Assembly: GCA_045659905.1 (NCBI GenBank)
Contig: JAZRCT010000040.1
Location: 2,003 to 66,002 of the forward strand
From: Eubacteriales bacterium
Lineage (GTDB): Bacteria > Bacillota > Clostridia > Oscillospirales > CAG-272
Reading direction: 5' to 3'
Length of the DNA stretch: 64,000 nucleotides
Shown: piece after piece, positions 14,120-52,043 of the stretch
How positions within the stretch are numbered: the first letter of the stretch is position 1
Layout of the letters: each line of letters starts with the position of its first letter
Program-made: the position numbers and the translations under genes
Notes under the pieces: model-generated
The model's database searches: none
Told to the model about the DNA's origin: nothing
What the model saw: only the letters and a program-made list of their open reading frames with translations

Positions 14120-14376
14120 GAATCCGCCCGATAGTTCGAGATAGCAAATCCGTAACCAAAAAAGGATAAATCCACCCGATTCAACTCCAAATCCGTCGGC
14201 TTTGTCTCAAAATCCGTCCACTTTAATAATAAATCCGTCCCGTTCAGACGAAAATCCACCCAATTTAATGGCAAATACACCCGCTTTAGTGAAAGTACGC
14301 CAGCCTTAGCTAAAAGTACGCACGCTTTAGCAATAAATACGCAGTCTGATAAGAAAAATCCCGCAATAAAGCACGG
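14120..14376. repeat. 21-bp tandem array I (~12 degenerate units, consensus AAATCC(R)(Y)CC-N11)
   Basis: Unit starts at 14146, 14168, 14189, 14210, 14231, 14252, 14273, 14292, 14313, 14335 and 14356 (spacings 22,21,21,21,21,21,19,21,22,21). Confidence 0.8.
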
Positions 14377-48851: not shown

Positions 48852-50510
48852 TTAGCCGTTTAACATTCTGTTGATAGCGCACACGAGCGCCTTTACGGAG
48901 GAATTTCCGATATCGCTGTCGACACCGCAGCCAAAATAGGTCTTGCCTCCGGAAATTATGCTTACGTAGGACGCCGCCCTTGCGCTGGTAGTGCCGTCTA
49001 TTGCGTGCTGGGTGTAAAGGTCGAGCGTGTAGTCAAGACCGAGCGCCGCTTTAATAGCGTTGCTGACGCAGTCAAGACGGCCGTTGCCCGAGGAGCGAAT
49101 CTCCTTTTCGCCGTCGTTAAGCAAGACGGTGACTACCGCCTCGATGCCGCCGTCAAGCTCAAGATACTGAGCGCGCTTGACCGAGAGGGTGTCCTGACGG
49201 TTGACGAAGTCACGCATAAAAATGTCGTAAACCTCCCTCGGCTGAAGCTCTCTGTGACCGTGGTCGGAGATGCTCTTTATATGATATCCGAATACCTCCC
49301 TCAGCTTCGGGGGAAGATTCATATTGAACTGCGTTTCCATAATATAGCCGATGCCGCCCTTGCCTGACTGCGAGTTGATTCTGATAACGTCAGCCTCGTA
49401 TACCCTGCCGACGTCGGTGGGGTCAAGCGGAAGATAGGGAACTGTCCAAGGAATATCCTTGGCCTCTCTGAATTTCATACCCTTGGCAATTGCGTCCTGA
49501 TGCGAGCCTGAGAATGCCGCAAACACGAGCTGTCCCGAGTAAGGCATACGCTCATACACACGCATACGGGTGACCTTTTCGTACACCTCGGTAATGGCGG
49601 GAAGATTGGAAAAATCAAGCCCCGGGTCTACGCCCTGCGAATACATATTGAGCGCAAGCGTGATAATGTCCACGTTGCCCGTGCGCTCGCCGTTGCCGAA
49701 AAGCGTACCCTCTATTCTGTCGCCGCCTGCAAGAAGTCCCATTTCGCTATCTGCCACGGCGCAGCCTCTGTCGTTGTGCGGGTGAAGCGAGATTATGACG
49801 TTTTCTCTGTCAATAAGATTTTTGTCCATATAAGCCACCTGGGCGGCGTAAATATGGGGCATTGAGTGCGACACCGTGACGGGAAGATTTATAATAACCT
49901 TATCCTCTGCCGTGGGCTGCCAGATTTTTAAAACCTCATTGCAGATTTCAGCGGCGTACTCGGGCTCCGTGCCGGTAAAGCTTTCGGGCGAATACTCAAA
50001 GGTGATTTTGCCCTTCGCCTTCGCCTTGTAATCACGGCAAAGCCTTGCGCCGAAAACGGCGATATCTATAATTTCCTGCTTGCTTTTCCTGAAAACCTGC
50101 TCTCTTTGCGCTACCGAGGTGGAATTGTAAAGATGCACCACGGCGTGCGGAGCGCCGTCTATCGCCTCAAAGGTCTTCTTGATTATGTGCTCTCTTGACT
50201 GGGTGAGGACCTGAATCGTCACGTCGTCGGGAATGAGCTTTTGCTCTATGAGAGTGCGGCAGAATTCATACTCGGTCTCGGAGGCGGCGGGGAAGCCTAT
50301 CTCGATTTCCTTGAAGCCGACCTCTACCAGCAGCTTGAAAAACTCAAGCTTTTCTTCAAGGCTCATAGGAATTATGAGCGCCTGATTGCCGTCACGCAAA
50401 TCGACGCTGCACCATCTTGGGGGCTTGTCTATGTATTCCTTATTCGCCCAGCTGAAATCAAGCCTTTCGGGCGAGAAAAACTGCCTTTTGTACTTTGCGT
50501 AGCCTTTCAC
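48852..50510 (-). CDS. leuA: 2-isopropylmalate synthase (long LeuA form), GTG start
   Basis: 552 aa; RWCSVDLRDGNQAL and HPHNDRG motifs; C-terminal regulatory domain. Confidence 0.94.
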   Translation of the reverse strand: MKGYAKYKRQFFSPERLDFSWANKEYIDKPPRWCSVDLRDGNQALIIPMSLEEKLEFFKLLVEVGFKEIEIGFPAASETEYEFCRTLIEQKLIPDDVTIQVLTQSREHIIKKTFEAIDGAPHAVVHLYNSTSVAQREQVFRKSKQEIIDIAVFGARLCRDYKAKAKGKITFEYSPESFTGTEPEYAAEICNEVLKIWQPTAEDKVIINLPVTVSHSMPHIYAAQVAYMDKNLIDRENVIISLHPHNDRGCAVADSEMGLLAGGDRIEGTLFGNGERTGNVDIITLALNMYSQGVDPGLDFSNLPAITEVYEKVTRMRVYERMPYSGQLVFAAFSGSHQDAIAKGMKFREAKDIPWTVPYLPLDPTDVGRVYEADVIRINSQSGKGGIGYIMETQFNMNLPPKLREVFGYHIKSISDHGHRELQPREVYDIFMRDFVNRQDTLSVKRAQYLELDGGIEAVVTVLLNDGEKEIRSSGNGRLDCVSNAIKAALGLDYTLDLYTQHAIDGTTSARAASYVSIISGGKTYFGCGVDSDIGNSSVKALVCAINRMLNG

Positions 50511-50583
50511 TTAGGGTATCCTTTCGTATCGCTGAGGACAGGCTTTACCGTGCCTGCCTGCGCATAAAATAATAATTAGTAAC

Positions 50584-50612
50584 ATTTTAGCACAAACTCG
50601 TTAGTTTGTCAA
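50584..50612 (-). promoter_or_regulatory. sigma-A promoter of the leuA-ilv-leu operon (TTGACA-17-TGcTAAAAT)
   Basis: The minus strand reads TTGACAaactaacgagtttgTGcTAAAAT. The leader to the GTG start is ~65 nt, and no T-box core is visible in it. Confidence 0.65.
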
Positions 50613-50638
50613 TTAGATTTTAGCATAAAGCGGAAGAA

Positions 50639-50653
50639 AATTTTGTGAAAAAA
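50639..50653. promoter_or_regulatory. weak CodY-box-like 15-mer AATTTTGTGAAAAAA upstream of the -35
   Basis: 12/15 match to AATTTTCWGAAAATT. The position (about -40 to -55) would fit a branched-chain amino-acid operon. Confidence 0.25.
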
Positions 50654-50702
50654 GCAAGGGTAAACCGACGGAAAAAAGAGCAGACTCGGCGTGATGTCCT
50701 TA

Positions 50703-50842
50703 ACGGACAAAGCACGCGGTTAAATCCGTCTTCGACGGGTGAAATCCACCTATGGTGGATGAAATCGCTTTCGCAATGAAATCCTGCTTCGCAGGGTTAA
50801 GATAGACAAGCTTGATTTCATCGTTGCCTGCAACGATTTCAT
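50703..50842. repeat. hairpin-linker array D with ATGAAAT linker (4 forward units, then 2 ATTTCAT inverted)
   Basis: CCGTCttcGACGG-GTGAAAT; CCACCtatGGTGG-ATGAAAT; CGCTTTCGCA-ATGAAAT; CCTGCttcGCAGG-GTTAAGAT; ...ATTTCAT-CGTTGCctGCAACG-ATTTCAT. It lies between the ilvE terminator and the leuA promoter. Confidence 0.75.
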
Positions 50843-50851
50843 TGAACTAAC

Positions 50852-50884
50852 AAAAAAGAGCAGACGTACAAGATTTCGTCTTGC
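50852..50884 (-). terminator. intrinsic terminator after ilvE
   Basis: The minus strand reads GC(a)AGACG-aaatcttgta-CGTCTGC followed by TCTTTTTT. Confidence 0.6.
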
Positions 50885-50981
50885 GTATCTGCCCGTTTTT
50901 ATAATGATGTGCTTGTCACTGTAAAAGCGATTGCGCATAGCATACGCCTGTTCACGGCGGCGCTTGGCTTCGTAGGAAAAA

Positions 50982-52043
50982 TCAAATCTTGTATACCCAG
51001 CCGTAGCTGTCGGTAATCTTGCCCCATTGGATTCCCGTAAGGGTGTCGTAAAGCCACTGGGTGACCTCTCCGATTTTCTCGCCGCCTATTACGAACTCCT
51101 CGTCCTTATACATAAGCCTGCCTATCGGAGAAACGACGGCGGCTGTGCCGCAGCCGAACGCCTCCTCGAGCCTGCCCTCCTTAAGAGCGAGAATAAGCTC
51201 GTCAACCGAGAGTAAGCGCTCCTCGACAGTATAGCCCTTGCTCTTTAATACCTCTATGCAGGATTTTCTCGTAATACCGGGGAGAATAGAACCCGTGAGC
51301 TTCGGGGTGACTATGACGCCGTCTATCTTGAACATTACGTTCATGGCGCCGACCTCTTCGATATACTTGCGGTGAACGCCGTCGAGCCACAGCACCTGAG
51401 AATAACCCTTCTTGTTGGCACGCTCGCCCGCTCTCGTGGAGGCTGCGTAGTTGCCGCCGCATTTTGCATAGCCGGTGCCGCCTCTTACGGTGCGGACGTC
51501 CTCCTCCTCTATCATAATCTTTACAGGGTTGATGCCCTCCTTGTAGTAGCTGCCGCTCGGCGAGGCTATTACCATAAATTTAGCGCGCTTTACTGCGTGA
51601 ACTCCGAGAGCCTCGTCGTTGCCAAAGAGGAAGGGACGAAGATAAAGCGACGTGCCGAACGAATAGGGTACGTATTCCTGCTCACACTTCACAAAGGCGG
51701 TAATCAAACCGAGCATCTCGTCCTCGTCCATTTCGGGCAGCGACATACGCTCGGCAGAGCGGTTCATTCGTCTTACGTTCTCCATAGGTCTGAAGAGCTG
51801 AACGCTTCCGTCCTTGGTGCGATACGCCTTAAGTCCCTCGAAAATTTCAGCGCCGTAATGAAGCACTGTTGAGGCAGGATGCAAAGAAATGTTGGCAAAA
51901 GGCTTGATTTCTGCGTTGTGCCATCCGTTTTCCTCGTCGTAGTCTACGGTGAGCATATGGGGCGTGAAATAAGTGCCGAAGCCAAGCTCGCTTTCCTTTG
52001 GGAGATTAGGCTTGTTTGGATTTTTCGTGATTTTGATTTCCAT
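50982..52043 (-). CDS. ilvE: branched-chain amino acid aminotransferase
   Basis: 353 aa; LHYGAEIFEGLKAYR and GGTGYAKCGGNYAAS motifs (fold-type IV PLP). Confidence 0.94.
   Translation of the reverse strand: MEIKITKNPNKPNLPKESELGFGTYFTPHMLTVDYDEENGWHNAEIKPFANISLHPASTVLHYGAEIFEGLKAYRTKDGSVQLFRPMENVRRMNRSAERMSLPEMDEDEMLGLITAFVKCEQEYVPYSFGTSLYLRPFLFGNDEALGVHAVKRAKFMVIASPSGSYYKEGINPVKIMIEEEDVRTVRGGTGYAKCGGNYAASTRAGERANKKGYSQVLWLDGVHRKYIEEVGAMNVMFKIDGVIVTPKLTGSILPGITRKSCIEVLKSKGYTVEERLLSVDELILALKEGRLEEAFGCGTAAVVSPIGRLMYKDEEFVIGGEKIGEVTQWLYDTLTGIQWGKITDSYGWVYKI

Follow-up and report, generated by a model that had tools for sequence, protein, structure and literature searches.

Gut-1 (Rfam RF01706) is the closest described relative of the element that we analyze here. 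The Gut-1 motif was seen solely in human-gut metagenome sequence, and it was proposed to be probably a non-coding RNA, whose function is not known (Weinberg et al. 2010, Genome Biol 11:R31, PMC2864571). In this description, which is the only one in the literature, Gut-1 is a non-coding RNA with three hairpins, and these small and variable hairpins are set on GUGAAAU linkers (PMC2864571).

Other known systems share parts of this design. The REP/BIME elements of Enterobacteria are short palindromic units that occur in both orientations between genes, often near terminators and in many copies, as do the arrays described here. However, in REP elements the hairpins are conserved and the spacers vary, while in Gut-1 arrays it is the reverse, and no intact Y1 transposase is present in the genome analyzed here. 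Pneumococcal BOX elements (boxA-boxB(n)-boxC) and the Correia elements of Neisseria are also modular, with variable numbers of internal units and stable secondary structure, and their non-coding copies outnumber any coding partner, as is the case for Gut-1 arrays. In contrast to BOX and Correia elements, no terminal inverted repeats with a consistent target duplication are evident in Gut-1 arrays, their units measure just about 20 nt and share a constant linker of 7-8 nt, and some copies are joined to a protein gene. Sponge sRNAs of the CsrB/RsmZ type likewise have many short hairpins in a string, with a repeated short motif as the putative binding site. But the GGA motif of CsrB is in the loops, while the motif of Gut-1 arrays is between the hairpins, and the copy number per genome is far higher for Gut-1 arrays, which are known here from DNA sequence. 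Finally, Avd of diversity-generating retroelements and the PF05635 family (PDB 2RLD and 2GSC) resemble the protein that is encoded by complete copies of our element, which matches PF05635, although array D itself has no such gene.

Array D is a hairpin-linker array in the 471-bp spacer between ilvE and leuA. It is part of a window of 64,000 nucleotides (the whole stretch of DNA that was analyzed) from a Eubacteriales bacterium, whose genome (the host genome) is a 1.77 Mb assembly with 58 contigs and is 94% complete. The Gut-1 covariance model matches 50717-50787 on the + strand with 50.5 bits (E = 5e-7 for the whole window), which is only just above the gathering threshold of 50 bits. The match spans model positions 1-77, or the full length of RF01706, and in the cmscan alignment three consecutive variable hairpins sit on conserved (G)UGAAAU linkers; each of these hairpins folds alone. 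We think it likely that a dispersed, modular hairpin-linker repeat with two arms, which belongs to uncultured gut Clostridia, is present at 50689-50851 as a truncated copy without a gene (Table 1). The forward arm of this repeat is what Rfam catalogs as Gut-1.

Table 1. Features of the ilvE-leuA spacer and of related loci. Positions are those of the window unless a contig (C) or locus (L) is named.
Feature	Position or locus	Strand	Remarks
leuA	48852-50510	-	
leuA promoter	50584..50612	-	TTGACA-17-TGcTAAAAT; outside the element, downstream of it in the direction of leuA transcription
Direct repeat, left copy	50672..50685	+	AAAAAAGAGCAGAC, 14 nt, exact; ends 3 nt before the element; from a repeat search, spacing 180
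Leader hairpin	50689..50717	+	GCGTGATGTCCTTAACGGACAAAGCACGC, 29 nt; left-end module of gene-less copies
Forward arm	50722..50795	+	Four units (CCGTCttcGACGG, CCACCtatGGTGG, CGCtttcGCA, CCTGCttcGCAGG) on GTGAAAT/ATGAAAT linkers
Forward unit 1	50722-50738	+	AAAT-CCGTCttcGACGG
Forward unit 2	50739-50758	+	GTGAAAT, then CCACCtatGGTGG
Forward unit 3	50759-50775	+	ATGAAAT, then CGCtttcGCA
Forward unit 4	50776-50795	+	ATGAAAT, then CCTGCttcGCAGG
Decayed 3' half of long-range closing stem	50796..50814	+	GTTAAGATAGACAAGCTTG, 19 nt without structure
Inverted arm	50815..50842	+	One unit, ATTTCAT-CGTTGcctgCAACG-ATTTCAT
Right end of array D	50843..50851	+	TGAACTAAC; TTGAA here is the -35 of the four-helix-bundle gene promoter in complete copies
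Direct repeat, right copy	50852-50865		AAAAAAGAGCAGAC, 14 nt; A-run plus 5' stem of the ilvE terminator
Bidirectional ilvE terminator	50852..50900	both	A-run, imperfect stem of ~14 bp, T-run; RNA fold -21.4 kcal/mol, z -5
IlvE-type aminotransferase gene	50982-52043	-	
leuA leaders of congeners	L032, L033, L039		
Cargo genes downstream of PF05635 genes	L127-L146; host C24:32873-33796	- (C24)	Two GNAT acetyltransferases, MazG-like, glyoxalase-fold, DUF2691, HTH-T5orf172, HNH-like, lipoproteins
Conserved tail, host genome	C8:~13895, C28:~17659, C35:~211, C55:~21134		
Conserved tail, other genomes	L266, L269, L270, L273		

An earlier note on this DNA had described array D as four forward hairpin units followed by an inverted unit with ATTTCAT on either side, and had related it to the other hairpin-linker arrays of the window. 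We found all of these units, and the relationship holds. The note considered the linker of array D to be a different one, but it is the canonical linker: the consensus of the Gut-1 model is hairpin-GUGAAAU-hairpin-GUGAAAU-hairpin-UGAAAU, so the ATGAAAT/GTGAAAT type is the standard, and arrays of the AATATCACT type, which occur elsewhere in the window, deviate from it. The third forward unit, which the note called degenerate, is present and forms a true mini-hairpin with a 3-bp stem and a GAAA loop (GCGAAAGC on the - strand), and it is kept in 19 homologous copies. Similarly, GTTAAGAT is not a fourth linker but part of a mutated remnant of a closing stem (GTTAAGATAGACAAGCTTG); intact copies read ..AGACGGATTTG here, which pairs with the first 10 nt of the element.

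The forward arm of array D aligns with 19 other copies, to which it is homologous unit by unit. On the - strand, its loops are, in the order of the units, GAA, ATA, GAAA, and GAA. The clear hairpins of array D have folding energies of -5 to -8 kcal/mol each (z of -2.3 to -5), and the whole 171-nt element reaches -59 kcal/mol, as compared to -41 for shuffled sequences (z = -4.6). Array D is real and far from chance.

Copies of this repeat are dispersed across the host genome and its relatives. There are 49 matches to RF01706 in the host genome at E <= 1, nine of them above threshold. The earlier note had proposed a genome-wide search for such hairpins and linkers, and in a simple scan for arrays of at least 3 uniform linkers we found about 45 arrays, as compared to 8-13 in shuffled sequence. 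They fall into several linker families (GTGATATT, which is the commonest, GTGAAGTT, GTGAAAT, GCGATAT, and ATGATAT). Many of the arrays and matches are at the ends of contigs, as is expected for repeats that break assemblies of gut Clostridia, which should be of practical interest to builders of metagenome-assembled genomes. Across the host and 40 relatives, RF01706 matches were found in 28 of the 41 genomes searched, with up to 39 per genome. Copies that are 82-88% identical to array D lie on unrelated contigs of five other genomes (G003, G004, G021, G023, and G036), while the flanking genes are only 68-82% identical among these species. The leader hairpin by itself has 10 copies in the host genome, each 2-8 nt before an array of a different linker family. 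At least 119 species genomes contain its pattern, and in 72 of them an array follows; nearly all of these hosts are uncultured animal-gut Clostridia (Christensenellaceae, Oscillospiraceae, Acutalibacteraceae, Eubacteriales, and Candidatus Scatosoma). We found no match to the element of array D in the phages and plasmids that we searched, no match in two exact-pattern scans of metagenome contigs (for the leuA promoter and for the 3' end of ilvE), and no other record of the exact IlvE protein; the closest genomes are about 80% identical in the flanking genes.

We reconstructed the full architecture from homologues of array D in the host genome (C34, C3, C52, and C12) and in twelve other genomes. 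Array D aligns unit by unit with C34, C3, and C52 and with copies in G003, G004, G011, G021, G023, and G036. Intact members, whose linker is GATGAAATC, begin with a hairpin; in some this is the conserved leader hairpin, and in others a tRNA gene supplies it as its terminator. Their right ends are of two kinds: some have a sigma-70 promoter followed by a PF05635 gene and a cargo gene, and others have a bidirectional terminator followed by about 100 nt of conserved tail. In full gene-less copies, the order is the leader hairpin, AGTC, four forward units, ..TTAGACGGATTTG, inverted units on ATTTCAT, T(A/C)AACCAACAGAAAAAGAG, a hairpin, CTCTTTCTGT, and the conserved tail, which contains TTGACCGGTCAA. 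(The ilvE terminator is arranged like the AACAGAAAAAGAG-hairpin-CTCTTTCT module with which these copies end.) The inverted arm has 3-6 units in intact members, and 4-6 in full copies, with the reverse complement of the linker. In intact copies, the first 10 nt of the element (AAATCCGTCT) pair with AGACGGATTT behind the fourth unit, and this closing stem encloses three mini-hairpins as a closed junction. Indeed, RNAalifold predicts a 10-bp closing stem around three hairpins from a 20-sequence alignment. The closing stem covaries (for instance, from U-A to C-G in five sequences), and 8 of the 28 consensus pairs in this alignment keep pairing through changes on both sides.

The copy in the window is decayed: its closing stem, two inverted units, and the module on the right are gone. 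The closing stem is intact in C34, G021, G004, and others, but in the window copy 4 of its 10 pairs are broken or weakened (three broken pairs, AC, CA, and CA, and a UG wobble; alignment A1), so that GACGGATTT of intact copies has become GACAAGCTT. The second and third inverted units, CCAAGG..CCTTGG and CTGAACGAAGTGAAG, which are found in C34 and in other genomes, are absent, and so is the whole right-hand module. It retains the leader hairpin, all four forward units, and a single inverted unit. A MITE (a non-autonomous transposon) would have terminal inverted repeats and a target-site duplication of constant length. An exact 14-nt direct repeat brackets the window copy, but we found nothing comparable around C34 or C55, or around the copies in other genomes. 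The two ends of the element are different modules, and no transposase or integrase is associated with it.

Two side observations concern these sequences. First, the tail of about 100 nt that follows the terminator of full gene-less copies (GTTATAAGGGTTTGGGCTTAGCCCATATTTGCGTTTGACCGGTCAAATGCGATGCTCGCAC..) is conserved in several genomes and across different linker families, and it has no match in Rfam. Second, the commonest 7-mers of the host genome all contain AAGCT (AAGCTCG, 871 copies; CGAGCTT, 865; AAAGCTT, 766), and the mutated remnant of the closing stem in array D (50806-50811) itself now reads AAGCTT.

The other kind of right end links the arrays to a protein. In array D's linker family, the complete copies are L103, L106, L117, and G019. 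Complete GATGAAATC copies consist of a tRNA gene, a terminator, the forward arm, the closing segment, the inverted arm, ATTTCATTGAAA-16/17-TGATATAAT, and a gene; in L103 and L106, the gene is preceded by ATTTCATTGAAAATC..TGATATAAT. The window copy stops at ATTTCATTGAAC, which is exactly the position of the -35 hexamer in complete copies. The protein of the complete copies matches PF05635 (23S rRNA intervening-sequence protein, an Avd-like four-helix bundle) at E = 3e-24 and PDB 2RLD at E = 4e-23. PF05635 genes are present in 71 of the 151 genomes that we sampled from the order, and at about 50 of 82 PF05635 loci there is an array of at least 3 linkers, usually in both orientations, that ends 15-90 nt before the ATG. 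These arrays belong to more than 12 linker families. Furthermore, 34% of the array-linked loci have a strong sigma-70-like promoter between the last linker and the gene, versus 1.8% of shuffles. Among 16 genomes from different families, PF05635 was found in 6 of the 8 with Gut-1 matches and in none of the 8 without them. Gene-less copies are nevertheless far commoner: the PF05635 gene lies behind the leader hairpin in only 3 of 119 cases (119 species).

The last codons of the PF05635 gene (..ACCGCAAAGGAGAAT..) form a ribosome binding site for the next gene, which starts within about 10 nt. This next gene differs at every locus, so that it is a translationally coupled and variable cargo. (The mix of cargo resembles that of gene cassettes.) The host genome has two PF05635 genes, each directly behind a two-armed array, and no other protein recurs next to its arrays. 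These two arrays have GTGAAGT and TATGKMAT linkers, and in the 94% complete assembly there is no four-helix-bundle gene behind a GTGAAAT or GTGATATT array; hence a cognate protein for array D is missing here. Because the linker and the protein are inherited together, their association does not on its own show that one recognizes the other.

We also found that the loops of the hairpins have a polarity. Among 80 clean units of the host genome, 43 loops read T..C on the strand with the TGA linker and none read G..A. In other words, GNA and GNRA loops (GAA, GCA, GAAA, GTAA, GTGA, and GCAA) are on the strand that has ATTTCAC, AATATCAC, or AACTTCAC as its linker, and this is the opposite of the strand that is modeled in Rfam. 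On the sense strand of downstream genes, the gene-proximal arm has 27 G..A loops and 5 T..C loops, while the distal arm has 1 and 34. As the GNRA/GNA loops are always on the ATTTCAC-type strand, the favored strand flips between the arms. The polarity holds in other genomes and tracks the unit, not the element, which implies that a single transcript would show the favored loops in one arm only. Three readings would fit this: opposite strands fold in the two arms as single-stranded nucleic acid, transcription is divergent, or the units are produced or copied as modules with a fixed orientation. We considered divergent promoters at the center of the element, as these would account for the flip, but neither inspection nor a promoter scan gave convincing hexamers. 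Counts of wobble pairs favor neither strand, with 17 G.T and 17 A.C in a noisy set of hairpins, and about 7 and 4 for internal pairs in the family alignment. This strand rule is newly shown here, and any model for Gut-1 must explain it.

For the family as a whole, we infer that the arrays are probably recognized by a protein. Each unit, that is, the constant linker plus a GNRA/GNA mini-hairpin on the ATTTCAC-type strand, would be a recognition module on single-stranded nucleic acid. The modules would be read by a family-specific protein, for which the four-helix-bundle protein of the complete copies is the best candidate, and the gene-less copies would be non-autonomous derivatives. The two arms, the closing stem, the polarity of the loops, and the linkage to an Avd-like gene with its variable cargo make this model testable, and protein binding could be tested with a few oligonucleotides and one small protein.

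We also put forward, tentatively and with some doubt, that gut Clostridia might have a cassette system that has not been described, in which the arrays serve for recognition. In such a system, the two arms of an array would expose modules of a linker plus a GNRA hairpin, each arm on a different strand, and the Avd-like four-helix-bundle protein that is encoded just behind the array would read it. The ribosome binding site at the end of the protein's gene would drive an adjacent small accessory gene (GNAT, glyoxalase, MazG-like, HNH-like nuclease, or lipoproteins). The unit would settle behind tRNA genes and terminators, and array D would be a dead, gene-less relic.

In any case, Gut-1, which has been an orphan for 15 years, gains host genomes, a full architecture, and a candidate partner from PF05635, which is itself an orphan family. 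To the published description, our analysis adds dozens of copies per genome, several linker families, the inverted arm, and the long-range closing stem, as well as the leader and terminator modules, the linkage to PF05635, and a loop polarity that is opposite to the modeled strand.

Could array D instead be an independent sRNA gene, transcribed from the + strand, antisense to its neighbors, and ended by the bidirectional ilvE terminator? The match to the + strand exceeds the Rfam threshold, compensatory changes preserve the stems, and a bidirectional terminator follows at 50852-50900, just as full gene-less copies end in a terminator. Furthermore, the forward arm has the same direction as the upstream gene in 26 of 35 cases in the host genome. 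However, array D is an exception to this, as it points against both of its neighbors, and it is truncated. Upstream on the + strand there are no promoter-like sites except for a weak match (9/12) at 50544-50573. Also, copies do not resemble one another in the sequence that precedes the leader hairpin, which means that no promoter travels with the element. In the copies that begin at tRNA genes, the array lies between a terminator and a promoter, and the GNRA/GNA loops of the forward arm are on the other strand. We consider an sRNA gene to be unlikely.

Another alternative, which is the role that the earlier note had given to array D, is that it regulates or insulates the ilv-leu genes in cis, either by blocking read-through from ilvE or by binding a factor that controls the leuA promoter. 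The note was correct that array D lies between the ilvE terminator (-21.4 kcal/mol) and the leuA promoter (TTGACA-17-TAAAAT, 50612..50584 on the - strand), and this position would suit such a role. On the - strand, which is the strand of the ilvE and leuA transcripts, array D comes after the ilvE terminator and ends in the leader hairpin, and together with GTCTGCTCTTTTTT this hairpin could add a second, weak stop. But it makes a poor terminator: the T-run is 11 nt away from the stem, and the hairpin plus T-run folds at just -14 kcal/mol (z = -1.95). Also in favor of this role, the host genome lacks the T-box of its relatives: in three congeners (G014, G015, and G016), there is a T-box leader at leuA (93-117 bits), downstream of the promoter, and we found no T-box match at 50400-51100 of the window. 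A leader RNA would lie between the promoter and leuA, and array D is upstream of the promoter. Yet the ilvE-leuA spacers of these three congeners and of G008 contain no array, and in G008 the spacer has only a promoter and a terminator. Elsewhere, the same element is behind unrelated genes and behind tRNA genes. With about 45 dispersed arrays in the genome, array-free spacers in congeners, and a copy that is truncated and has lost its closing stem, a regulatory role in cis is quite improbable. 

Because the copy is truncated and the congener spacers lack it (and three of them have a T-box), array D is probably a lineage-specific and inert copy of the repeat, rather than a regulator of ilv-leu. 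Judging from its sequence and placement, its contribution to the region from the ilvE terminator to the leuA promoter is most likely no more than some passive secondary structure, which may have a small effect as a passive barrier. Array D should not be read as a control element of ilv-leu.

Two details of the region upstream of leuA can be added. The leuA leader of the host (50511-50583 of the window) is about 67 nt long and has no T-box, and the ilvE-leuA locus of G008 has no T-box match either. The -10 region of the leuA promoter (ATTTTAGCAcAAA, 50584-50596) is duplicated 33 nt upstream (50617-50629, with 92% identity), which creates a second and weaker promoter-like site, TTCACA-16-TATGCT.

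It is very improbable that array D is a REP/BIME-like element that was copied by a REP-associated tyrosine transposase (of the IS200/IS605 type) that recognizes a hairpin and its flank on single-stranded DNA: the copies are intergenic, numerous, and close to terminators, with units in both orientations and a loop bias that picks out one strand per unit, and GCGAAGC and GCGAAAGC are very stable DNA mini-hairpins, but REP elements conserve the sequence of the hairpin, while our arrays conserve the linker and have hairpins that differ; moreover, none of the 82 loci that we examined showed an array-linked transposase, and the sole Y1 transposase match in the host, on contig 37, is broken and is not near any array. 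We rejected mobilization by an IS200 or RAYT transposase, as this broken copy is the only Y1_Tnp match in the genome. The match (C37:4050-4405, + strand) is split and interrupted by a pair of in-frame TGA codons, and it probably represents a dead insertion sequence.

It is just as hard to believe that array D and the 21-bp AAATCCRYC array at 14.1 kb of the window share an origin or bind the same protein. The earlier note had linked the two by their 9-mers, and the shared 9-mers are there: AAATCCGTC and AAATCCACC occur at 50722/50742 and five times at 14168-14260. In all, array D and 14120-14376 have three 9-mers in common. The note had asked for comparison with shuffled sequences, and 23 of 2000 dinucleotide shuffles reach this number (about 1%, in a test that is post hoc). 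Given the AAATCC heads, the chance of GTC or ACC following two of the three is about 0.006 from genome-wide frequencies. The two arrays also have similar periods, at 20-21 bp. But the genome has many copies of AAATCCGTC and AAATCCACC (58 and 38), most of which lie within genes, and there is no similarity beyond 9-10 nt. Neither hairpins (0 to -3.5 kcal/mol) nor RTGAAAT linkers are found in the 21-bp units, which weakens the proposed link, and these units are iteron-like direct repeats without dyad symmetry, while the units of array D are palindromic and 17-21 nt long. As the 10-mers AAATCCGTCC and AAATCCACCC head not just the 21-bp units but also the first units of complete copies (L103, L106, and L117), a distant relation may exist. 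Still, array D should not be taken as a tie to the partition-site repeat region.

The host genome also contains tandem arrays without hairpins, at C38:1798-1936 on the - strand (about 7 copies of AATGAAACG-type units of 21 nt) and at C57:602-667 on the + strand (4 copies of TTTGAAAC-headed units of 20 nt). These have TGAAA in common with the Gut-1 linker and are built differently.
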